From: an uncultured cyanobacterium
GTDB lineage: Bacteria; Cyanobacteriota; Cyanobacteriia; Cyanobacteriales; CAWUOF01
NCBI GenBank assembly: GCA_963744145.1
Contig: CAVUSO010000001.1
Span: forward strand, 1,934,831-1,998,830
Direction: 5' to 3'
Length of the DNA stretch: 64,000 nt
Shown: piece after piece, positions 12,583-62,971 of the stretch
Layout of the letters: every line of letters starts with the position of its first letter
How positions within the stretch are numbered: the stretch's first letter is position 1
Translations under genes and position numbers: made by a program
Notes under the pieces: model-generated
What the model was told of the DNA's origin: nothing
The model's database searches: none
What the model saw: only the letters and a program-made list of their open reading frames with translations

Positions 12583-12892
12583 TGAAGTACAGTAAGATTT
12601 GGCATGAATGGTGGGACAGGCATCTTGCCTGTCAGAGATTGTAAGTGATCTGTGTTGGTTGGGCAGGTTTATGATAGTTATCTGTTTGGAGCAGAATTGA
12701 TTGGTGAACCTGCCCCTACAAATCCTGTTAATCTTGTAATCCTCTCATCCTGATCGATTTTTTGGTAAATCCCTGTAGGGGCGGGTTCACCGATGAACTT
12801 GCCACACACAAATAACCCTTGTGCCGAGCGCAGTCGAGGTATTAATGAACCCGCCCTGCCCCACAGATCACCTTGATGAACTTCATAAACCT
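12583..12892 (+). repeat. MITE-like dispersed repeat (GGTGAACCCGCCCCTAC core family), about 310 bp copy with nested inverted repeats
   Basis: Contains ggtgaacctgcccctacaaatcc ... ctgtaggggcgggttcacc and gatctgtgttggttgggcaggtttatgat ... aacccgccctgccccacagatcacc pairs. Direct copy at about 17895-18160, inverted partial copy at about 14014-14165. Confidence 0.7.
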
Positions 12893-14013: not shown

Positions 14014-14165
14014 CAGGATTTGTAGGGGCGGGTTCACCAATTAATTTTGTGACAAACCGATCACCATTATAAACCCGCCCAACCAACACAGATCAATCAC
14101 AATCGACTTTAACTGATCGGACAGGCAAGATGCCTGTCCCACAATCTTACTGTACTTCATCAATA
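14014..14165 (-). repeat. MITE-like dispersed repeat, partial inverted copy
   Basis: tgtaggggcgggttcacc ... aaacccgcccaaccaacacagatc ... gacaggcaagatgcctgtcccacaatcttactgtacttcatca is the reverse complement of the 12583-12650/12700 segments. Confidence 0.65.
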
Positions 14166-17894: not shown

Positions 17895-18160
17895 TGATGA
17901 AGTACAGTAAGATTTGGCGCTAATAGCGATAAGTTAAAGTCAATTGTGATTGATCTGTGTTGGTTGGGCGGGTTTATGATGTTGATCTATTTGTGTCAGA
18001 ATTAACTGGTGAACCCGCCCCTACAAATCCTGGTTTATTGTCCTCATAAATTCATCGACAATACATTTTTATGAGCTAGTAGGGGCGGGTTCACCGCTGA
18101 ATTTGCCACACACAAATAACTTTAATAAACCCGCCCAACCTCACAGATAACCTTGATGAA
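17895..18160 (+). repeat. MITE-like dispersed repeat (same family as 12583-12892)
   Basis: tgatgaagtacagtaagatttgg ... gatctgtgttggttgggcgggtttatgat ... ggtgaacccgcccctacaaatcctgg ... gtaggggcgggttcaccg ... aacccgcccaacctcacagataacc. Confidence 0.7.
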
Positions 18161-38165: not shown

Positions 38166-38381
38166 TTACTGTTTGCCATAGAACATAAAATTAATCTCCT
38201 CTGACTCATCGTCAAAATCATCAGCAATCCAAACGCGCCCTTCCCAAGCACCTGGAGTACGTGGCTCAAGTTTTCCCTGATCACTAAGCTCCAATGGTTG
38301 ATCAAAATCATCTGAACCACAATTTAAACCCATGATCGCCGCTTCCGAAAAAATTTCCCTTAAATCATACCAATTCACCAT
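38166..38381 (-). CDS. hypothetical small acidic protein
   Basis: ORF starting at the internal Met (MVNWYDLREIF...). The annotated longer N-terminus lies inside a repeat copy. Acidic C-terminal half. Confidence 0.3.
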   Translation of the reverse strand: MVNWYDLREIFSEAAIMGLNCGSDDFDQPLELSDQGKLEPRTPGAWEGRVWIADDFDDESEEINFMFYGKQ

Positions 38382-38557
38382 GAAGATACATTGATGTATA
38401 TTGATCTGTGGGTGAGGGTGGGTTTTGATGATTAGTAGGTAAATGTCAAACATCTCGGTGAACCCGGGCGGGTTTTTCTAATTAATTGGTAAATTTCAAA
38501 AATCTGGGCGAACCCGCCCCTACTACAGAAATCCGCAAATTGAGGATAAAATTGGTA
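38368..38557 (+). repeat. left half of a MITE-like element split by IS insertion
   Basis: Identical to 58765-58957 (...gaggataaaattggtag). Continues at 40288 after the IS. Confidence 0.75.
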
Positions 38558-40290
38558 GATACTGTCTTGATTTGTCAAGGGGTAGCGATCGCCAAATTGC
38601 CTAATTAGGGTCAAAGAGTTTAGCAGATTTGAAAATCGCCAAAATATGGTTAGGGATTTTACCATTAAAGCACTAATCTCCTGGATTTTTACCTGACCCA
38701 CGCAGCCATCATCTCTCACTCATTAATGGGAGTAATGAGTGGTGAAGCATCGTGACTGTGGGCAGAAAGGCGAGCATTTTTGGCACTGGAAACCCGACGG
38801 ATTGACCCTAACTATAGAGCCACCGTTTGTTCACCCATACTGGGAATAGAAGTCAACCAGTTCCGTAGTTGTTTAAGCGAGATCCTCTCGATGCACAGTC
38901 GTCAGTTTCGTCTGTTCATCTTGGTTGAGGGATGAACATGTTCTGGTGGCGAGATTTCGCCCGCCAGATCCCATCTAGACGGGTAAAGGGGTAGCGCTCG
39001 CATAATTGGGGTCAAAAGGTGTTTGGGATTTTAAAATCCCAAACGCCAAATGTAGGAGTTTTCGCATCAGGGCTCCAACCACCTGCATTTTCACCTTGCC
39101 ACGCTCCAATAATCGCTCACTCATTGCCTTGAGTAATGGGTTATGACTCATCGCTACTACGGCGGGCATATAAGCGCGCTTTTCGCAGTCGAGTATTGCC
39201 TATACAAGACAAGCGAGTTTTACCATGAACTGAAGTTCCTGAACTCCGCTCGCAGGGATTTAACCCAACATAAGCAACTAATTGGCGGGCATTTTTATAA
39301 TCGGTAATCCGACCAATTTCAGCTAACAATACAGCCGCAGTTTGTTCGCCAATTCCCGGAATTGAAGTCAACAGCTCACGTTGTTTTTTCAAATGGGGAT
39401 GTTGGTCAAAATGGTCGCGAATTAATTGTTTGATCTCAGCTTGTTGTTGGGCGAGATATTCTAGATGCTTTCTCGTTATCAGCGCGACAGATTCGCTCTC
39501 GGTTTCGAGCCGATTCTGCTCCTGTTGCGCGATTTCGATGAAGGATTCTAGTCGTCTGAGTAGGGCTTGTAATTCCTTAACTTCCGGTGCTGTTGGTTTC
39601 CAAAATGACGGCTTCATCGCCACACAAAAACGCGCAATTAAGCCTGCATCTACCGCGTCGGTTTTCGTTCGCAGGAGTTCACTTTTGGCAAATCCTTTGA
39701 TCCGCGCTGGATTAACGATACTTACCTGATAACCAGCCTGGTAGAGGAATTCAGCTAATGCTTCCCCATAAATACTGGTCGCTTCTAAGCAAGCATGAAG
39801 TTCTACCACACCTTGACATTTGAGCCATTGTGCTAAACTTTCAAACCCTTCTAGATCATTAGTAAACTTTTTTGGTTTTGGCTTTTTCCCACAGTCCAGT
39901 TTCAATAAAACGACATGAAAGTCTTTTTTACTGATGTCTATTCCTAAGACTGTAGATGTCATAAGTTTCTCCTGATGTCGAGTTGATGGGTGAGAACTTG
40001 ACAGACATTAAACTAACCTTGTTAATACAGGCTATCTCGTGACCACGAGTGCCTTAGATACTGTCGAGTTTTCTGTGCGTCTGTCATCAGCGACTGGGAG
40101 CTTATCTACAAAACAGACTTATGAGGTCTGAGGGGCGGGCCAACTTCACCACTTGCTGATGTTCTTCAGCACACTTTCTCATCTCTACTGAGCTGAGGTC
40201 GAAAACTTTTCTAGTTTCTTTAGATTTCTCACTAATCCTTGATGTACCTGCATCTTGGTAGTCCAATTATCTGTATCCTTTAAAGATACA
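38558..40290 (-). mobile_element. IS110-family insertion sequence (about 1.7 kb) inserted into a MITE-like repeat copy; carries a partially duplicated 3' segment
   Basis: Transposase gene on the minus strand. Insertion point defined by comparison with the uninterrupted repeat at 58765-59070 (ggtag|gggcagg). 38560-38960 resembles the transposase 3' end (GQVKIQEISALMVKSL... versus GKVKMQVVGALMRKLL...). Confidence 0.7.
38975..39962 (-). pseudogene. IS110-family transposase, frameshifted (273 aa N-terminal ORF plus 64 aa C-terminal ORF)
   Basis: N-terminal DEDD_Tnp_IS110 (LGIDISKKDFHVVLL). Transposase_20 (IPGIGEQTAAVLLAEIG). C-terminal LLERGKVKMQVVGALMRKLLHLAFGILK in a different frame. Frameshift in the gcgcgc run near 39150. 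Confidence 0.75.
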
Positions 40291-40410
40291 AGGGGCAGGT
40301 TCACCAGTCAATTTTGCTACCAACAGATCACCATTATAAACCTGCCCTGACTTAACAGATCAACCTCAGATTAAGTGCAATTTCATAGTTAATTGGTATC
40401 AGCACCACCA
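40288..40410 (+). repeat. right half of the MITE-like element split by the IS
   Basis: gggcaggttcaccagtcaatttt...caacagatcaccattataaacctgccctg...tcaacctcagattaagtgcaatttcatagttaattggtatca matches 58958-59066. Confidence 0.75.
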
Positions 40411-54736: not shown

Positions 54737-54761
54737 TTAATCCTAATTTACTCGGTCAGAT

Positions 54762-54965
54762 CCATTGATGAGATTGATCTGTGGGTGGGGGTGGGTTTTT
54801 ATAATTAGTGGGTAAATTGCCAAAATCCGGGTGAACCCACCCCTACAATAATCGGCAAATTGAGGATAAAATTGATGGAAAAATATGTGATTAAATTGGT
54901 AGGGAGAGGTTCACCAATAAATTTGTTACCAACAGATAACGATCATAAACCTGTCCCGTTCTCCC
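54762..54965 (+). repeat. MITE-like dispersed repeat, divergent copy
   Basis: gatctgtgggtgggggtgggttt...ccgggtgaacccacccctacaa...gaggataaaattgatgg...gagaggttcaccaataaattt...cagataacgatcataaacctgtccc. Confidence 0.65.
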
Positions 54966-54993
54966 AAATCAAACTAATTTAAAGGAGTGTTCC

Positions 54994-57171
54994 ATGAACT
55001 CAGAAAAATGTCAAAGACCAGGATGTAACGGTATCATAGAAGATGATTACTGCAATATTTGTGGACTTGCAGCACTAAAAAAGTCAGACATAAATACCTC
55101 TTCACCAAGTAGAGCAACTAAACCAAGCGATCGGATTACGACCGGTACAGGTTCCTCACCCCTCACCAATCGTTCTTCTAAAGGTTCTCGACGTACCAGT
55201 ACCTCAGCTAGAAGTAGTCGTAAACAACTCGGTGCTGGACTGGTATCAATTCCAGAATTACCTTCAACCGAACCAGAAAAAGCGATTATGCTAGAAGCAA
55301 AAGTGCCAGAAAATAAGCGCTTTTGCTCAAATTGTGAAAACCCCCTGAAACGAGAACAGGGATTCTGTAGTAAATGTGGCAAAAAATTTTCTTTTATTGC
55401 TACACTCCATTCTGGTGATTTAATTGCTGGTCAATATGAAGTAAAAGGAGCGATCGCTTATGGAGGATTAGGTTGGATTTATCTTGGGTTTGATCGGACT
55501 TTATCTCGTTATATAGTTCTCAAAGGGTTACTCAATACTGAAGATGCTGCTAGTGCAGCAGTTGCAGTAGCAGAACGCAAATTTCTTGCTGCGGTTAAAC
55601 ACGCTAATATTGTCGGAATTTATAACTTTGTCAATCATGGAAACGAAGGTTTTATCATCATGGAATATGTTGGTGGTAAAACTTTAAAACAAATTCGGAA
55701 AGAACGCGGACCACTACCAGTTACCGAAGCGATCGCTTATATTCACCGAATTTTAGGTGCATTTGCTTATCTCCATTCCTTGGGATTAGTATATTGTGAC
55801 TTTAAACCTGATAACGTGATGCTCGAGGGAAATGATGTCAAATTAATTGATTTAGGTGGTGTGAGACGGATTGATGATTTAGAGGGTGATATTTATGGGA
55901 CAGTTGGTTATAGCGCTCCCGAAGCAGGTGAAGGACCAACTGCAAGTTCTGATTTATTCACGATCGGAAGAACATTAGCTGTTCTGATTGCTGACATTAG
56001 AGGTTTTAGTAAAGAACATCTTTATACTTTACCCAACGCGATTGAAGAACCTGTATTTGCTCAACAAGAATCCTTATATCGATGGTTAATTAAATCCACC
56101 GCTGAAAATCCAGACGATCGCTTTCAATCTGCGGATGAAATGGCTGATCAATTATTAGGAGTATTGCGAGAAATAGTTGCAAAAGAAACAAATACTCCCC
56201 GTCCGAGTGATAGTAATATCTTTGGGGGAGATCTATTATCAATGATCACTAGCAATGATTTTGAACCGATCGCTCCTAGTTATCAACAACTACCTATTCC
56301 CATGATTGACTCAACTGATCCTGGGTTTAATGTAGTAATCAACGCAAGTGCTATTGCTAATCCACACCGACAATTTGAGAGTTTTAAACAAATTGTGCAA
56401 CAATTTCCTACTTCTACTGAGGGAGTTTTACGTCTAGCTAATAGTTTAATTAATCTTGGTGCTTATGATGAAGTAGAAAAAGTTTTAGCGCAAATTGAGG
56501 AAAAAGATCCTTGGGATTGGAGAGTGCTATGGTATCGAGGACGATCATTAATGTCTCAAGGTAAAGCAAAGGAAGCAGAAGCAGCTTTTGATCAGGTTTA
56601 TTTCGATTTACCAGGAGAATTAGCACCAAAATTAGCCCTAGCTTTAGCCGCAGAGTTAGCTCATAATTATCAACTAGCAATTAAAATGTATGATGTGGTA
56701 TCACGGACTAATCCAAGTTTTACTACTGCTGCTTTCGGTTTAGCCCGTTGTTTAAGCGCAATTAGCGATCGCAATGGTGCAGTAAAAGCTTTAGAACGAA
56801 TACCACAAACATCATCTTTATGGGTAAAAGCGCGGGTAGAAATAGCCCGGACTTTAATCGATCGTCAACATCAAACACCGGGAATGGAGGAATTACAAGC
56901 AGCAGCATCAGCAATTGAAGCGATCGCTCTAGAAGGAATGGATCACCATAAACTAACCTTACAGGTTTTAGAAACAGCTTTACATTTAATTTCTTCCCAA
57001 GCATTAGCACCAAATTCCAGGATCTCAATTTTCGGACAACCTCTGCAAGAATTACATCTGAGAAAAGGGTTAGAAAAATCTTTGCGAGCGATGGCACATT
57101 TAACAACTGGAGATGATAAAATTCGGTTAGTGGATCAAGCTAATCAAGTCCGTCCAGTCACCTGGGTTTAA
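54994..57171 (+). CDS. PknG-like Ser/Thr protein kinase: double zinc-ribbon N-terminus, Ser/Thr-rich linker, kinase domain, C-terminal TPR-like domain
   Basis: CQRPGCNG...CNICG and CSNCEN...CSKCG. Kinase motifs CDFKPDNVML and DLGG. TPR-like C-terminal helices. AAAGGAG RBS upstream. Confidence 0.8.
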   Translation: MNSEKCQRPGCNGIIEDDYCNICGLAALKKSDINTSSPSRATKPSDRITTGTGSSPLTNRSSKGSRRTSTSARSSRKQLGAGLVSIPELPSTEPEKAIMLEAKVPENKRFCSNCENPLKREQGFCSKCGKKFSFIATLHSGDLIAGQYEVKGAIAYGGLGWIYLGFDRTLSRYIVLKGLLNTEDAASAAVAVAERKFLAAVKHANIVGIYNFVNHGNEGFIIMEYVGGKTLKQIRKERGPLPVTEAIAYIHRILGAFAYLHSLGLVYCDFKPDNVMLEGNDVKLIDLGGVRRIDDLEGDIYGTVGYSAPEAGEGPTASSDLFTIGRTLAVLIADIRGFSKEHLYTLPNAIEEPVFAQQESLYRWLIKSTAENPDDRFQSADEMADQLLGVLREIVAKETNTPRPSDSNIFGGDLLSMITSNDFEPIAPSYQQLPIPMIDSTDPGFNVVINASAIANPHRQFESFKQIVQQFPTSTEGVLRLANSLINLGAYDEVEKVLAQIEEKDPWDWRVLWYRGRSLMSQGKAKEAEAAFDQVYFDLPGELAPKLALALAAELAHNYQLAIKMYDVVSRTNPSFTTAAFGLARCLSAISDRNGAVKALERIPQTSSLWVKARVEIARTLIDRQHQTPGMEELQAAASAIEAIALEGMDHHKLTLQVLETALHLISSQALAPNSRISIFGQPLQELHLRKGLEKSLRAMAHLTTGDDKIRLVDQANQVRPVTWV

Positions 57172-57198
57172 TCAAACCTATAGTCAAAAATTAATTTT

Positions 57199-58146
57199 AT
57201 GCAATGTCCAAAATGTCATAATTCCGTCCAAATTACCGACCGTTTTTGTGAAGAATGCGGGACAGAACTAATGGTAACTAATTTGAGCAGTGCGATCAGC
57301 AACTGTGAAAAATGTGGTGCAGATGCGGAGCAAATTGATCAGGAAGGATACTGCTCTAATTGTGGATTTCGTCGAGAAGAAAGAGAAACAGATCGGATTG
57401 AAATAAATTGCTCTCCCTGTTTAGCTGGGATCAGCGATCGGGGACTTAGACATCATCATAATCAAGATTATATCGCTGTTCAACATATAGAGCATACGGA
57501 CATATTAGTTGTATGTGATGGAGTTTCCAGTTCCGAATCACCAGAATTAGCAGCAAAAGCTGCTGCTGTAAGTGCTTGTCACAGTTTAGTAACTGCGGTT
57601 GAAAATAATATTCCCTTACCAGCAGCAATCAAACAAGCGATCGCAGCAGCACAAGCAGCAGTATGTGCTGTTCCTTATACCACACCGACAGAAAACTCAC
57701 CATCAACTACCATTGTCGCAGCGATCGTGCAAAATAGTATGGCTGTAATTGGTTGGTTAGGAGATAGTCGTGCTTATTGGATTTCTGACCAAGATTCACA
57801 ACAATTAACCACTGACGACTCTTGGTTAAATGATATGATCGCATCCGGTCAATTGACCGAAGCAGAAGCAATCCAATCAGACAAAGCACACGCAATTACT
57901 CGTTGGTTAGGAGCAGATAATAGCGACACTGAACCATCGATTATTACTTTTCCTTTTGCTAATTCTGGATATTTGTTACTATGTAGTGATGGTCTATGGA
58001 ACTATTTACCTAAATCTGCACAAATTGCTGAACTTGTCAAGCTCAATATCAAATCAGATACCATAACAATTTCGCGCTCGTTAGTTGAATATGCGCGACA
58101 CTGTGGCGGGCATGATAATATTAGTGTGGCGATCGCAAAAGTATAA
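57199..58146 (+). CDS. PP2C-family Ser/Thr phosphatase with N-terminal double zinc ribbon
   Basis: CPKCH...CEECG and CEKCG...CSNCG. PP2C motifs (GISDRGLRHHHNQD, VCDGVSSS, LLCSDGLWN, GGHDNISVA). Confidence 0.8.
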   Translation: MQCPKCHNSVQITDRFCEECGTELMVTNLSSAISNCEKCGADAEQIDQEGYCSNCGFRREERETDRIEINCSPCLAGISDRGLRHHHNQDYIAVQHIEHTDILVVCDGVSSSESPELAAKAAAVSACHSLVTAVENNIPLPAAIKQAIAAAQAAVCAVPYTTPTENSPSTTIVAAIVQNSMAVIGWLGDSRAYWISDQDSQQLTTDDSWLNDMIASGQLTEAEAIQSDKAHAITRWLGADNSDTEPSIITFPFANSGYLLLCSDGLWNYLPKSAQIAELVKLNIKSDTITISRSLVEYARHCGGHDNISVAIAKV

Positions 58147-58149
58147 TAT

Positions 58150-58262
58150 TTGATAAATTGTTGAAGCAAACGTAAATTATCTAGCATCCGAATATAAGCT
58201 TTCACTTGGGGATATTTTTGATTAATTTTCCAGGAGAAACTAGCGATCGCTACTAAATATTT
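58150..58262 (-). repeat. diverged/truncated copy of the about 140 bp peptide-encoding repeat
   Basis: caaacgtaaattatctagcatccgaatataagctttcacttggggatatttttgattaattttccaggagaaactagcgatcgc. Confidence 0.6.
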
Positions 58263-58341
58263 TTGCTCTGATATTTACTCCTCAATAAAAAGTCCATTCT
58301 ATTATCCCAATTCAGGCGATCGCCCTTTTAATCCAACAACA

Positions 58342-58611
58342 CTAACCCCGGATCGGACAAAGACTGAGAGTGGAACAATCAACTTTAATTCTCGGACGCA
58401 GTTCAACTTGAACCAAAGTCTTTAACTCTTCATTTTGTGGTGCTACAAAAAATTCTAATTTGCCGTTAATATAGTCAGTAATTTTAATCATATTCACCAA
58501 TTCAAAACACATAATTCCTATCGTTGCATCGGCTATTTTTAATTGAATTTGAACTGATTCTTGAATAATATTTATTCCCAACTTGAGAGTAACACCTAAC
58601 GAATCTGTCAC
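58342..58611 (-). CDS. hypothetical protein (weak)
   Basis: ORF only. An upstream same-frame segment is separated by TAA. Confidence 0.2.
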   Translation of the reverse strand: MTDSLGVTLKLGINIIQESVQIQLKIADATIGIMCFELVNMIKITDYINGKLEFFVAPQNEELKTLVQVELRPRIKVDCSTLSLCPIRG

Positions 58612-58764
58612 TTCATAACACCAATAACCATCGGACGGTTGAGATTTTTTCGGTTCTTCACAAAATAATTATAGGAAAGCTAGTTCATCAAATCCACCTT
58701 GCAGATTGATTTTTGTCATTTTTTTACCTAAGATATCAGGTCATTTTCCATATATTATAGCACT

Positions 58765-59070
58765 GATACCAATTCACCATGAAGATACATTGATGTATAT
58801 TGATCTGTGGGTGAGGGTGGGTTTTGATGATTAGTAGGTAAATGTCAAACATCTCGGTGAACCCGGGCGGGTTTTTCTAATTAATTGGTAAATTTCAAAA
58901 ATCTGGGCGAACCCGCCCCTACTACAGAAATCCGCAAATTGAGGATAAAATTGGTAGGGGCAGGTTCACCAGTCAATTTTACCACCAACAGATCACCATT
59001 ATAAACCTGCCCTGGCCTAACAGATCAACCTCAGATTAAGTGCAATTTCATAGTTAATTGGTATCACCTC
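58765..59070 (+). repeat. intact about 300 bp MITE-like element (reference copy; equals 38368-38557 plus 40288-40410 joined)
   Basis: Continuous identity to both flanks of the IS110 insertion. Confidence 0.8.
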
Positions 59071-59317
59071 AATATCTACTTCACCCTCTTCTCCTGTATT
59101 GTTATTTATAAAAGTCTCAGTAAATCGTTTAACAATATTGCTTTCTTGCTGCACAGTTTGCTCAAGATGAGTTTGAATAAATTGACGAGATTCTGAATGT
59201 CAAGGGCTTATTTTTAATATATAGGTTTTAGGAATTGTAAAATTATATCATTTTTAGCAAATAGGCGGGAAGTATTGAATAATAACAAGATTATGCTGGC
59301 TGAGTTTTTATTTTAAC

Positions 59318-59470
59318 TCTGAATTTACCTACTGATTATGATTTTTGGATCGATCGCTCATCATCCTGATGTCCAAGGATCAGCAAACGTAAATAATCTA
59401 GCATCCGAATATAAGCTTTCATTTGGGGATATTTTAAATTAATTTCCCAGTAAAAACTAGCGATCGCGGG
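59318..59470 (-). repeat. about 150 bp repeat whose minus strand encodes MKAYIRMLDYLRLLILGHQDDERSIQKS; here forms the 3' end of the 142 aa ORF
   Basis: Near-identical to 60304-60444. Confidence 0.7.
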
Positions 59471-59764
59471 AATATCAAACACTCGCATTCTTTGCAATCG
59501 CTCAATTGCTTCCTGTTCATTTTCAATCCAACCTCGTACTTGAATTTGACTAGCATAACCACGGATATCTGATGTTAACAGATCAATTTCCTCTAAAACC
59601 GTAAAGTCTTCATTGGTAACTAAAGGTAAAGCCGCTATCTCTTTTCGTTCTTGCTTGGTATTCTGGTAATCGATAGTTAATTGCTCTAACAGGTGAGTAA
59701 TATAGCTTCTAGTGCTTGGAGAACTTTTAGGATTAAACGTTGCTTCAGTCATCATTAACTCCAT
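59336..59764 (-). CDS. hypothetical protein (C-terminus contributed by repeat)
   Basis: 142 aa ORF, 20 nt overlap with the upstream 114 aa ORF. The last 28 codons are identical to the stand-alone peptide ORF in the repeat copy at 60315-60401. Confidence 0.4.
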   Translation of the reverse strand: MELMMTEATFNPKSSPSTRSYITHLLEQLTIDYQNTKQERKEIAALPLVTNEDFTVLEEIDLLTSDIRGYASQIQVRGWIENEQEAIERLQRMRVFDIPAIASFYWEINLKYPQMKAYIRMLDYLRLLILGHQDDERSIQKS

Positions 59765-60089
59765 AGGTGACTATTTTTTCAATTCCAAATTGATTGGGTC
59801 TTACAATTAGATATTCATTTCCTTTTCGATAAACGGCTGAACTATCTCGACGATATCCAGTCGGTGGGACTCGGTTTGCTCTCTTCTTATTGAAGTTATG
59901 GGCTTTGCGTAGATATTTTAATGGATCAAATTCTTTTCTTAAAGCATGGTCTAAAATATTTTGAGCTACACTGATATAAGTAGAAGCATCCCACTCAGCC
60001 ATATACTGCATTATTTCGGTAACTTCTGTCTCACTGTATCCTTCATATAGCTGGGTTAAAAATGGATCGATAGACTCATTCGACATCAA
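59745..60089 (-). CDS. hypothetical basic protein
   Basis: 114 aa. Lys/Arg-rich C-terminal half (RKAHNFNKKRANRVPPTGYRRDSSAVYRKGNEYLIVRPNQFG). Coupled to the next ORF. Confidence 0.4.
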   Translation of the reverse strand: MMSNESIDPFLTQLYEGYSETEVTEIMQYMAEWDASTYISVAQNILDHALRKEFDPLKYLRKAHNFNKKRANRVPPTGYRRDSSAVYRKGNEYLIVRPNQFGIEKIVTYGVNDD

Positions 60090-60303
60090 TTTTTAACTCT
60101 AATTGAGTGAGTGGTTTGATCATAAAAAATGAGATATTTATCCAAACCTCAGCATTTTCTGATGGCTGTGACGTTATCATATAGGTTGATCGCTTTGCCT
60201 AAATTTGTTTCTCCCTCAACTGCGAATTATCCTCTATATCTATATTATGATAACCTATTTTTGGAAAAATTTATGATAGGTAATGTCCATTTTAGCTCCA
60301 AAT

Positions 60304-60444
60304 TTACCTAGGGATTATGATTTTTGGTGCGATCGCTCATCATCCTGATGTCCAAGGATCAGCAAACGTAAATAATCTAGCATCCGAATATAAGCTTTCA
60401 TTTGGGGATATTTTAAATTAATTTCCCAGTAAAAACTAGCGATG
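60304..60444 (-). repeat. about 140 bp repeat copy immediately downstream of the vWA gene; contains a free-standing 28-codon ORF (about 60315..60401)
   Basis: Near-identical to 59318-59470. The repeat edge supplies the TAG stop of the vWA gene. Confidence 0.7.
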
Positions 60445-61722
60445 ATCATCACTCAATACAGTTTTAGAAACAATCCGGGTTTTCTTGCGATCGCTTTGGG
60501 AAAGTTCTTTTCCTGACTGTAACTGAGTAGCACTACTTTGTAACACTGTCGCAGCACTTTGATCACCCATTTGTAAAGCAGTTTTTGCCGCAGTTTGCAA
60601 CATGGTTGCAGCACCTGCTCGGTCTCCTTGTTCTAATTTTATCTCTGCTAACTGAGTTTGTCGATATTTCGCTAAAGCTAATATATATTGTTGTACCTCT
60701 GCATCTTGCATTGGTTGATAATTCCGTACCACATTTGCTTCAACTGGAACAATTTGTGATAATAAACCTTCCTGATTGCTCCCAGGATCATCATAGCGAA
60801 TTTGGACTTGTGCGATCGTATTTTTTCCTTCTGATAAAGCTCCAATATAAATATTCCCCAATAATATTCTAGGATTATCCTTCATTAAATCTCCCACTCG
60901 TATTTGCCATCGATTACCTAATTTCTCCACAGGTAATTCAATCACATCTGGTCGAATTTGGGCGATCGGTTTCAGTTCAGCTAGACGAATATTATCACTT
61001 AGAGATAGAAGGAGATAAGCATTAGTTAAACCTACAGATTGTAACCGATTAAACAGACGACTAAACTCAGTTACAGCTTGTTCTGGATGCTCAATATAAC
61101 ATAAACTTCCTCCACCCGCATCAGCGATATTTTCCAGCAAATCTTGATTCCAATCTGAGCCAAAACCTAAAGTATTAATAGTAATATTTGTTAAAGCAGC
61201 AGTGCGTAGTGCTAATTCACGACAGCGTCGATTATCATCATTACCAATTTGCCAATTAAAAATCTTGAAACCGCTTTCTCCATGTCCATCCGTGAGTAAA
61301 AATGCGTGGGAAATTGCTTGATTTGTTCCCTTATTCAATTCTTCCAGTCCCTGATTTAAACCAGCATAAATAGAAGTGCTACCCTCAGCTACCAAATTTT
61401 TGACTTGCGATTTTACTTGTGCTGGTGATTGCATCAGTTGATTGGGAACAATCACTTTAGCTTCTTCATTAAAAGCGACTATGGAAATGCGATCGGTAGG
61501 TTTAAGCTGATCCAATAATTTTTCAACTGCTAATTTCACAGTTTGGAGAGGTTTTCCGGACATCGAACCACTCCGATCCAAAATTAACCCCAAATTCAGG
61601 GGAATATTTTGATCTAGTGCTTCCGAAATTGCCGCAATAGAAATACCTAATTGACGCTGACTATTCTTTTGATTAGCATCAATATTAGCATCATTTAAAA
61701 TCGCTTGTAATTTAATTTTCAT
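60436..61722 (-). CDS. von Willebrand factor type A (vWA) domain protein with C-terminal helical (TPR-like) region
   Basis: MIDAS DxSxS (ILDRSGSMSG) and T/D (LLTDGHGE). Start taken at MKIKLQAILND by homology with the paralog. The track ORF is extended upstream. Confidence 0.75.
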   Translation of the reverse strand: MKIKLQAILNDANIDANQKNSQRQLGISIAAISEALDQNIPLNLGLILDRSGSMSGKPLQTVKLAVEKLLDQLKPTDRISIVAFNEEAKVIVPNQLMQSPAQVKSQVKNLVAEGSTSIYAGLNQGLEELNKGTNQAISHAFLLTDGHGESGFKIFNWQIGNDDNRRCRELALRTAALTNITINTLGFGSDWNQDLLENIADAGGGSLCYIEHPEQAVTEFSRLFNRLQSVGLTNAYLLLSLSDNIRLAELKPIAQIRPDVIELPVEKLGNRWQIRVGDLMKDNPRILLGNIYIGALSEGKNTIAQVQIRYDDPGSNQEGLLSQIVPVEANVVRNYQPMQDAEVQQYILALAKYRQTQLAEIKLEQGDRAGAATMLQTAAKTALQMGDQSAATVLQSSATQLQSGKELSQSDRKKTRIVSKTVLSDDHR

Positions 61723-62971
61723 GACGAGGTTTATCCTGCAAAACAGTTTTCGATACAATCCGAGTTTTCTTACGTTCAGCTTCAGAAAGTTGTTGACCAG
61801 ATTGAAGACGAGTAGCACTACTTTGTAATACCGTCGCTGCACCTTGATCACCCATTTGCAAAGCAGTTTTTGCCGCAGTTTGTAACATTGTAGCTGCACC
61901 AGCGCGATCGCCTTGTTGTAATTTCATTTCTGCTAATTGAGTTTGTCTATATTTCGCTAAAGCTAAAATAAACTGTTGTACTTGAGGGTGAGGAGCAGGT
62001 TGATAAGACTTGACAACATTAGCATTAACTTGAATCACCTCAGACAATAACCCTGTCATCCCAAAAGTTGGATCATCGTAGCGAATTTGCACTGTAGCGA
62101 TCGGTTGTCTACCTTCTGGAAACTTACCAATATAAAGATTAGCTAAAATTACCTTTTCGACATCCTTCATTAAATCTCCCAACCGGATGACAAACCTACC
62201 ATCTTCTACTTGGGTGGGTAATTCAATTACATCTGGTGCTACCTGAGCGATCGGTTTTAGATCCGCAAGACGCACATTAGGAACTAGAGATAAATACAAA
62301 AAAGCATTAGTTAATCCGACCGCAGAAATCCGGTTAAATAAACGACTAAAAGCTTCTACGGCTTGTTCTGGACGTTCAATATAAGATAAATTACCACCAC
62401 CACCATCTGCAATTTTTTCCAGAATATCTTGATTCCAATTATCACCAAAACCTAAAGTATTTAAAGTAATATTATATTCAGCCGCTAAAGCAGCTAACTT
62501 TAAACAACGCTCATTATCACCATGTTCATTTTCCCCATCAGTCAACAAAAAAGCTTGAGAAGTAGCATCTTTTTTCCCCTTAGCTAACTCTTCAATTCCT
62601 AATTTTAAACCTTCATCAATAGCTGTTCCCCCGTCAGCCCGTAAACCACTAATTGCACTATTAATCTTACTCGGTTCTTCAATTAACTGATTTGGCACAA
62701 TAATCTTAGCTTTATGATCAAATGCTACTACCGACAGGCGATCGGTAGGTCTGAGTCGTTCCACAATTCGTTTAGCCGCATTTTTGACTGTATCAAGGGC
62801 GCGTCCACCCATTGACCCACTATGATCCAAAATTAAACAGAGATTGAGGGGGACATTACCATCCAGCTCACCAGCGATCGCGGAAATCGAAATGCCTAAC
62901 TGACGTTGACTCGTCGCTTGATTAGCATCAACATTGGTATCATTTAACATCGGCTGCAAATTAACTTTCAT
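61712..62971 (-). CDS. vWA domain protein (tandem paralog)
   Basis: ILDHSGSMGG, LLTDGENE. C-terminus ...AGAATMLQTAAKTALQMGDQ...KKTRIVSKTVL shared with the paralog. 11 nt overlap with the downstream paralog start. Confidence 0.8.
   Translation of the reverse strand: MKVNLQPMLNDTNVDANQATSQRQLGISISAIAGELDGNVPLNLCLILDHSGSMGGRALDTVKNAAKRIVERLRPTDRLSVVAFDHKAKIIVPNQLIEEPSKINSAISGLRADGGTAIDEGLKLGIEELAKGKKDATSQAFLLTDGENEHGDNERCLKLAALAAEYNITLNTLGFGDNWNQDILEKIADGGGGNLSYIERPEQAVEAFSRLFNRISAVGLTNAFLYLSLVPNVRLADLKPIAQVAPDVIELPTQVEDGRFVIRLGDLMKDVEKVILANLYIGKFPEGRQPIATVQIRYDDPTFGMTGLLSEVIQVNANVVKSYQPAPHPQVQQFILALAKYRQTQLAEMKLQQGDRAGAATMLQTAAKTALQMGDQGAATVLQSSATRLQSGQQLSEAERKKTRIVSKTVLQDKPRHEN

Follow-up and report, generated by a model that had tools for sequence, protein, structure and literature searches.

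A three-copy repeat in a cyanobacterial genome is the 3′ end of a candidate immunity gene with two probable leftover copies

What is encoded by a short repeat that occurs three times within a few kilobases of a bacterial genome? A stretch of 64,000 nt from an uncultured cyanobacterium (GenBank assembly GCA_963744145.1, contig CAVUSO010000001.1, positions 1,934,831 to 1,998,830), referred to here as the window, carries such a repeat beside a gene for a vWA-domain protein and two small overlapping open reading frames, ORF114 and ORF142. An initial annotation of this DNA described the repeat as a recombining cassette that encodes a 28-residue peptide, and the locus raises the question of whether this peptide has a gene of its own. 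We find that the repeat is the native 3′ end of the ORF142 gene, together with 26 nt of flanking sequence, plus two leftover copies of this segment. What had been described as a 28-residue peptide corresponds to the final helix of the ORF142 protein, its best-conserved one, and is not the product of a separate gene. In the reading that we favour, and that we consider likely, an immunity-gene 3′ end is accompanied by two dead fragments of itself, ORF114 and ORF142 form a toxin-immunity pair, and the relics arose by local rearrangement.

All three copies are on the minus strand and are named copy A, copy B and copy C (Table 1). When positions 60250-60470 were compared with the whole window by blastn, copies A and B aligned with 95.5% identity over 155 nt (E 2e-68), and copy C was matched at 58165-58247 with 91.6% identity over 83 nt (E 3e-29). 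No further copy was found in the 64 kb, the other blastn matches all having E values of at least 0.1. A repeat search of the window likewise grouped these three copies, which are spaced 1217 and 979 nt apart. The three copies reported at the outset are thus real, but copy C, which had been given an extent of about 113 nt, has only a core of 83-86 nt (identity 91.6-91.9%). The relationship of the repeat to its neighbours had been read correctly: copy A forms the in-frame tail of the 59336-59764 protein, where it covers residues 100-142, and copy B directly follows the vWA gene, whose TAG stop codon (60436-60438) is inside the repeat. The reading ATG-MKAYIRMLDYLRLLILGHQDDERSIQKS-TAA, which had been assigned to every copy, applies to copy A and, with His in place of Ile, to copy B, but not to copy C, which has GTG, carries an Asn and lacks the TAA. 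Copies B and A bracket the intact ORF114/ORF142 module as 155 nt direct repeats with a period of 979 bp.

The function of the repeated segment is most readily seen from the family to which ORF142 belongs. A protein search retrieved 224 homologues of approximately 130-150 aa, and all organism-named matches were cyanobacterial, filamentous or other. The most conserved stretch of the family, as judged from alignments of 31 and 46 sequences, is KAYIRMLDYLRLL, and K116, Y118, L122, D123, Y124 and R126 are invariant. The residue just before K116, Met115, which would serve as the start of a mini-ORF, is Met, Ile, Leu or Thr across homologues. The AlphaFold2 (AF2) model of ORF142 is an all-helical bundle with a mean predicted local distance difference test (pLDDT) score of 83.6 and a predicted template modelling (pTM) score of 0.77. 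Its last helix comprises H113-141, and pLDDT is approximately 95 across residues 111-130. Because of the family conservation and this model, we regard the '28-residue peptide' as the helix that completes the fold of a larger protein. The proposed independent mini-ORF is not borne out, as its ATG is an internal codon of the family and copy C is not conserved as a protein. The idea of a recombining, peptide-encoding cassette likewise gives way to the native 3′ end of a candidate immunity gene, which encodes the most conserved helix of the family.

Searches for the repeat in other DNA collections agree with this assignment. A scan for a 24 nt core of the repeat among contigs from one genome per species identified a single locus (L001), the source genome evidently being outside that collection. 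At this locus the core resides inside a gene for a 151-aa ORF142 homologue, with MKAYIRMLDYLRLLIL in frame, and is preceded by a gene for a 115-aa ORF114 homologue. A degenerate motif scan gave seven loci with one copy each in metagenome contigs and zero matches in viral contigs. The initial annotation had held that the cassette idea would be undermined if the repeat were confined to non-coding contexts elsewhere and if the mini-ORF were not conserved at the protein level between copies. The first was not observed, since the sequence is always coding, as the C-terminus of ORF142 homologues, and the second was.

Two local peculiarities of ORF142 were also considered. Codons 131-133 (59365-59373) encode G-H-Q in place of the E-Y-L found in at least 90% of the family, and this variation is common to copies A and B. 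Three single-base changes in neighbouring codons of the conserved terminal helix, all of them non-synonymous, suffice to derive it from the E-Y-L codons, and we therefore rejected it as the mark of a recombination breakpoint. The 36 nt between the HIP1 site (see below) and the codons for MKAY could have been an inserted small dispersed repeat, and this was rejected as well, as there is no change in length and Phe104, Tyr105 and Tyr112 are kept in the alignment.

The gene upstream of ORF142 provides information on what the pair is likely to do. ORF114 is co-directional with ORF142, and the two overlap by 8-20 nt. It has 246 homologues, nearly all of 113-115 aa and with a mean column identity of 79%, all organism-named matches being cyanobacterial, and this family of about 114 aa has its own conserved N-terminus. 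Neither ORF114 nor ORF142 had a match in Pfam, NCBIfam, PADLOC, PHROGs or PDB sequences. When 1.84 billion cluster representatives were searched with an ORF114-family profile, 115 matched, and in many of these the whole ORF114 domain is the extreme C-terminus of a far larger protein (465-2664 aa for the proteins with a C-terminal domain of this type). Specifically, the domain occupies residues 2303-2407 of 2409, 2581-2664 of 2664, 1846-1929 of 1930, 943-1045 of 1048, 744-850 of 858 and 650-762 of 762. The N-terminal parts of the fused forms contain, according to Pfam, either RHS repeats with FG-GAP or SpvB, or the core domain of extracellular contractile injection system (eCIS) effectors, eCIS_core (DUF4157). 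Examples are P0385, P0413 and P0382 with RHS repeats (2409, 2664 and 762 aa) and P0401 and P0460 with eCIS_core (858 and 1048 aa). Residues H48, R61, E92, K105 and Y109 are conserved in free and fused forms alike.

Rhs and eCIS_core (DUF4157) parts are standard delivery scaffolds of polymorphic toxins, and the genomic signature that defines a toxin and its cognate immunity protein is a toxin C-terminal domain with an immunity gene immediately downstream. The combination of an N-terminal DUF4157 with a C-terminal toxin is a published architecture of eCIS effectors (PMC8213781), and polymorphic toxin systems in general have been reviewed (PMC4436062). An ORF142 homologue is directly downstream at four of the five fused-toxin loci examined. 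The clearest case, L018, has a score of 105 bits and an hhalign probability of 99.5%, with 34% identity over 122 columns; scores at the other loci are 61-68 bits (L021 and L022), 25 bits (L020) and 10 bits (L019). These downstream homologues retain the terminal LDY(I/L)RLL..EY helix. The same order is found for the free-standing genes. In all eight other loci examined by tblastn the ORF114 gene is immediately upstream of the ORF142 gene. Seven of these loci have a complete ORF114 match that overlaps ORF142, and L006 has a partial one (residues 67-115 only). The adjacency is also present in Cylindrospermum stagnale PCC 7417 and Fischerella PCC 9605 (L011 and L013).

As the ORF114 domain tips Rhs and eCIS toxins and an ORF142 homologue follows it directly, we predict that ORF114 and ORF142 are very probably a toxin-immunity module. 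The suggestion that the 114- and 142-aa coupled ORFs might be such a pair had been made in the initial annotation, and both the profile matches at the C-termini of Rhs and eCIS_core proteins and the ORF142-family genes immediately downstream of the fused forms support it. No two of the genomes examined have the module in the same genomic context, and such variation is typical of toxin-antitoxin modules. No match to ORF114 was found by tblastn on plasmids and phages, and within the 64 kb tblastn revealed no second copy of ORF114; there is no full-length toxin gene with the domain, and no ORF of the window exceeds 1079 aa.

Two other loci bear on how this family is distributed. The contig L021 (Logan SRR7415549, 1-5793) carries, in this order, genes for a 3220-aa Rhs protein, a SUKH-3 immunity protein, a 762-aa orphan Rhs protein with an ORF114-type tip and an ORF142-type immunity protein, and is a textbook orphan array that includes the ORF114/ORF142 toxin-immunity family. 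In C. stagnale PCC 7417 (L011 8001-13279; CP003642.1), approximately 600 nt separate a free module from a gene for an AAA ATPase, and the ATPase gene in turn precedes one for a 585-aa eCIS_core (DUF4157) protein. This layout hints that free-standing modules and the loci of eCIS effectors are linked.

The predicted fold of ORF114 consists of helices followed by a three-stranded sheet. RelE, ParE, YoeB and HigB ranked at the top in two structure searches, with Foldseek E values of at least 0.16 and none individually significant. ORF114, a candidate toxin with the conserved residues His48, Arg61, Glu92, Lys105 and Tyr109, may have a RelE/ParE-like ribonuclease fold, although this structural similarity is weak.

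In contrast to copy A, copies B and C appear to be truncated and non-functional. Copy C differs from copy A at seven of 83 positions, and all of the changes are non-synonymous, including ATG to GTG and the invariant Y124 to N. Its similarity is lost after ...LRLL; there is no tail and no TAA, and the frame runs antisense into the neighbouring PP2C gene. Both relics begin at a highly iterated palindrome (HIP1) octamer, GCGATCGC, which in ORF142 forms the Ala-Ile-Ala codons of a conserved PAIA motif. The equivalent site is whole in copy C (58243-58250) and is kept as GCGAT in copy B (60439-60443). The chance that two independent breakpoints coincide within 8 nt of a 429 nt gene is approximately 2%. 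An alignment with the vWA2 paralogue places the junction of vWA1 and copy B at GAT GAT CAT CG/C TAG, which suggests that the native vWA1 sequence runs to ...GAT GAT CAT CG and that the junction has approximately 4 nt of microhomology to HIP1.

The extent of the similarity between copies A and B provides evidence on their origin. Homology of the module to other loci covers approximately 59368-60100 and ends 9-26 nt upstream of the ORF114 start, whereas the similarity between A and B reaches 58 nt past this inter-genome conserved part. Because the A/B homology covers locus-specific sequence, copy B is best regarded as a local duplicate rather than an independent arrival. C-terminal module shuffling, which the initial annotation had brought to mind for this locus, finds no support: no variable toxin module follows any copy, and no extra C-terminal fragments were found within the flanks examined at 10 other module loci.

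We propose the following history for the locus. ORF114 and ORF142 would be a free-standing, translationally coupled toxin-immunity module, in which the helical bundle of ORF142 would bind and neutralize ORF114, and this module would occupy a site prone to rearrangement, with the vWA gene pair on one side and the PP2C and kinase genes on the other. The 86 nt of copy C may be what remains of an older, decayed copy of the immunity gene. A later tandem duplication would have involved a 979-bp unit composed of the spacer, ORF114, ORF142 and 26 nt. The upstream unit would then have been deleted from the end of vWA1 to the HIP1 site in ORF142, leaving copy B fused to vWA1 through approximately 4 nt of microhomology. 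The resulting 155 nt direct repeats could permit RecA-dependent loss or amplification of the module. The site is considered unstable because the context of the module varies per genome, the vWA1 flank differs in Fortiea contorta, MITE-like repeats (miniature inverted-repeat transposable elements; see below) are present and the two relics share a HIP1 start.

Several observations weigh against this account or parts of it. Copies A and B differ at seven positions, two of them within the 129 nt of coding sequence and the other five within the 26 nt flank. This uneven spread (Fisher p = 0.0015; counted as events, one coding vs three in the flank, mostly doublets) is not predicted by a simple recent duplication, and hints at gene conversion or at constraint on copy B. 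Gene conversion across the coding part is the most economical reading. The G-H-Q sequence may mean that the immunity function of ORF142 is impaired or weakened. At the Rhs locus L017, the fused toxin gene is followed by an unrelated gene and a transposase fragment, with no ORF142 homologue. The ORF114 model is of low confidence (pLDDT 67), and its fold matches are not significant. Finally, the proposed order of events, duplication and deletion as opposed to integration into a pre-existing relic, is drawn from one genome. Three of the four A/B difference events are adjacent double substitutions (AT/CA, AG/CC and CA/TG), clustered at the 3′ end of the repeat (59316-59350 vs 60295-60329).

Alternatively, the repeats might be working recombination substrates. 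A circular module of approximately 979 bp would have integrated by a single, Campbell-type crossover into a relic beside vWA1, and could excise again to leave a scar like copy C, relic 3′ ends being landing pads. The module is exactly bracketed by 155 nt direct repeats with a 979-bp period, as a single crossover would give; copy C resembles a post-excision scar with the same HIP1 start, and the context of the module differs per genome. However, none of the 10 other loci has flanking repeats or relics, no recombinase is nearby and no plasmid or phage copies were found, and the extension of A/B homology 58 nt into locus-specific sequence indicates local duplication rather than an incoming element. 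Given the locus-specific homology and the lack of flanking repeats in other genomes, we rate circular integration below duplication and deletion and consider it unlikely. It is a long shot that HIP1-bounded 3′ fragments act as landing pads that let a module of about 1 kb loop out and re-insert by host recombination or, in a variant, that the 44-aa product of copy B tunes the balance of toxin and immunity. If true, this would offer a recombinase-free way to move, or to phase-vary, an addiction module in polyploid cyanobacteria. Copy B might instead specify a functional micro-protein of 28 or 44 aa from the vWA operon transcript, for example a free immunity helix that modulates the complex. It has an intact ORF in the orientation of vWA1 and 34 nt beyond the stop of that gene, a gene finder called a 44-aa ORF there (P0476), and one codon differs from copy A in the coding part, as opposed to five of 26 positions in the flank. 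That coding change is a single doublet that converts Ile to His, such that copy B reads ...ERSHQKS. None of the A/B differences is synonymous, and hence there is no evidence of protein-level selection on copy B. The ATG is a non-conserved internal codon of the family with no Shine-Dalgarno-like sequence upstream, the last helix of a bundle would be unlikely to fold by itself, copy C illustrates the decay of such fragments, and no such ORF is present at the other loci examined. We consider a micro-protein very improbable.

Non-coding explanations fare no better. Small dispersed repeats are abundant in cyanobacterial genomes, and MITE-like repeats are located 250 nt away, and the repeat could in principle be a non-coding mobile element (a MITE or small dispersed repeat) or a structured RNA that was captured as the tail of an ORF. 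Yet there are only three clustered copies in 64 kb, a single other genome was found to have the 24-mer core, and there it is within a homologous gene, all homologues have the sequence as coding DNA, and the segment encodes the most conserved protein motif of the family. The repeat search detected no inverted repeats, the predicted RNA folding of copy B is no better than that of shuffled controls (z = -0.19), an Rfam scan of 57000-61500 gave one chance, sub-threshold match to a plant miRNA, and a promoter and terminator scan found no terminator in the repeat. Copy number, coding status, the lack of inverted repeats, folding and Rfam together effectively refute a MITE or a structured RNA, folding and Rfam also speak against an integron attC-like site, and we give an origin of this kind almost no credence. 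It is scarcely credible, too, that the three-copy arrangement is an artefact of assembly. Mis-joins are possible at short repeats, but positions 59435-60359 (contig L002) and 58147-58379, including copy C (contig L010), are recovered at 100% in a separate Logan assembly of run ERR11571142, and an artefact is unlikely because of these exact matches. The first of these de Bruijn contigs runs from within copy B across the module into copy A and has the B-specific differences, the second spans PP2C and copy C, and the seven positions that differ between the copies indicate that they are not collapsed duplicates.

The reading of the locus as an immunity-gene 3′ end with two relics can be compared with several known systems. 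As in polymorphic toxins of the Rhs/YD-repeat and eCIS DUF4157 types, to whose extreme C-terminal domain ORF114 is homologous, a homologue of ORF142 is encoded just downstream. However, ORF114 stands alone with its own start and has no trafficking, repeat or pre-toxin region, its domain is not in the Pfam toxin and immunity catalogue, the window locus contains no full-length delivery toxin with which an orphan could recombine, and the repeated piece is an immunity gene 3′ end, as opposed to an orphan that encodes a toxin C-terminus. Type II toxin-antitoxin systems of the RelE/ParE kind, including toxin-first ones such as HigBA, resemble the ORF114/ORF142 pair in being two small, overlapping, co-directional chromosomal genes with the toxin first. 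The pair differs in lacking a match to these families, in that ORF142 is a bundle of 4-5 helices without a recognizable DNA-binding domain, where type II antitoxins combine such a domain (RHH, HTH, AbrB or Phd) with a disordered toxin-binding tail, and in the two extra N-terminal helices of ORF114 relative to RelE/ParE toxins. Orphan cdiA-CT/cdiI and rhs-CT/rhsI modules share with this locus the presence of truncated cassette leftovers beside an intact cassette, with short homologies that could recombine. In orphan modules of contact-dependent inhibition (CDI) and Rhs systems, however, the shared homology is upstream of the toxin part and swaps tips onto a delivery protein, whereas here it is downstream, in the immunity gene, with nothing variable after it. 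HIP1 is reported to promote excision in cyanobacteria (Robinson et al. 1995 and 1997, both cited in PMC5861425). The likeness to HIP1-associated excision is that both relics start at one HIP1 octamer and that the junction of vWA1 and copy B falls within it; the difference is that HIP1 is on one side only of each junction, with no HIP1-HIP1 pair shown.

If these assignments are correct, ORF114 and ORF142 would represent an undescribed toxin-immunity family of a well-known kind, which is very well conserved as a free pair in filamentous cyanobacteria and whose candidate toxin domain is fused to Rhs or eCIS proteins elsewhere. The conserved last helix of ORF142 is an obvious place to seek the binding determinant of the candidate immunity protein. 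The repeat itself is ordinary genome debris and should not be annotated as a peptide gene. The 44-aa P0476 is a public gene call that already annotates a relic as a gene. In clustering of proteins at 90%, P0476 is the representative of a cluster that also holds the 138-aa ORF142 (P0475), and because P0476 represents the cluster, full-length ORF142 is missing from homology search results and the real protein is hidden.

Table 1. Features of the repeat locus, with positions in the 64,000 nt window
Feature	Positions	Strand	Remarks
vWA2	62971-61712	-	vWA1 paralogue
vWA1, 428 aa	60436..61722	-	Pfam VWA; P0241 100% identical; essentially full length; last codons and stop at copy B junction
Repeat copy B	60289..60443	-	Apparent truncated duplicate of copy A, joined to vWA1 3′ end
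Mini-ORFs in copy B, 28 and 44 codons	60315-60401 (28 codons); 60315-60449 (44 codons)	-	28-codon ORF 34 nt past vWA1 stop
Spacer, 199 nt, genome-specific	60090..60288	-	No similarity to other loci; one weak promoter-like site, 60253-60226
ORF114, 113 aa from ATG (alternative TTG start 60089)	59745..60086	-	Predicted toxin
ORF142, 138 aa if MTEAT start at 59752	59336..59764	-	Predicted immunity protein/antitoxin; overlaps ORF114 end
Repeat copy A	59310..59464	-	ORF142 codons 101-142, stop and 26 nt 3′ flank; functional original
HIP1 octamer GCGATCGC	59460..59467		ORF142 codons Ala-Ile-Ala
Degraded spacer between copies A and C	58251..59309		MITE-like repeats 58766-59066 and broken ORF 58342-58720
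Repeat copy C	58165..58250	-	Apparent decayed internal fragment, codons ~99-128; 18 nt from PP2C stop
PP2C gene, convergent	57199-58146	+	Zinc-ribbon PP2C phosphatase

The wider locus is summarized in Table 1. The window has a G+C content of 39%, contains the HIP1 octamer 68 times in 64 kb and looks cyanobacterial. Read on the minus strand, the order is vWA2, vWA1, copy B, the 199 nt spacer, ORF114, ORF142 (which ends in copy A), approximately 1.06 kb of degraded sequence and copy C, followed by PP2C. The vWA1 protein of this genome ends in SKTVLSDDHR, and its orthologues end in SKTVLQE, SKTVLQD or SKTVLQDSSS; because the orthologues stop 2-5 residues past SKTVL, the protein appears to be essentially intact. 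The nearest vWA1 orthologue found has 67% identity. In Fortiea contorta, the synteny of ClpP, vWA2 and vWA1 is kept, but the 3′ flank of vWA1 differs.

On the other side of the module, positions 54994-58146 encode a PknG-like Ser/Thr kinase with rubredoxin, kinase and TPR domains, which has strong matches to PADLOC PD-T4-6, and a zinc-ribbon PP2C phosphatase. These genes converge on the two tandem vWA paralogues (60436-62971), which overlap by 11 nt and beyond which ClpP genes are located. The degraded interval between copies A and C contains, on the minus strand, an ORF of approximately 125 codons (58342-58720) with a single in-frame TAA (MTKINLQGGFDELAFL*LFCEEPKK...). Its 89-aa downstream part (ORF89) had no match in Pfam, NCBIfam, PADLOC, PHROGs or PDB sequence searches and is a singleton in the protein collection, and the broken ORF is probably a pseudogene of a small gene of no known family. 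A scan of the region for promoters and terminators showed no enrichment, terminator-like sites being present only within MITE-like repeats. These dispersed repeats, which carry GGGCGGGTTCGCCC-type hairpins, are found at 58766-59066, 38367-38558, 40291-40401, 54758-54975, 599-679, 12661-12723, 14018-14096 and 17950-18028. The segment 58956-59066 is 96% identical to 40291-40401, and 58766-58957 matches 38367-38558, approximately 20 kb away, with 100% identity across 192 nt, which suggests recent activity of the element.

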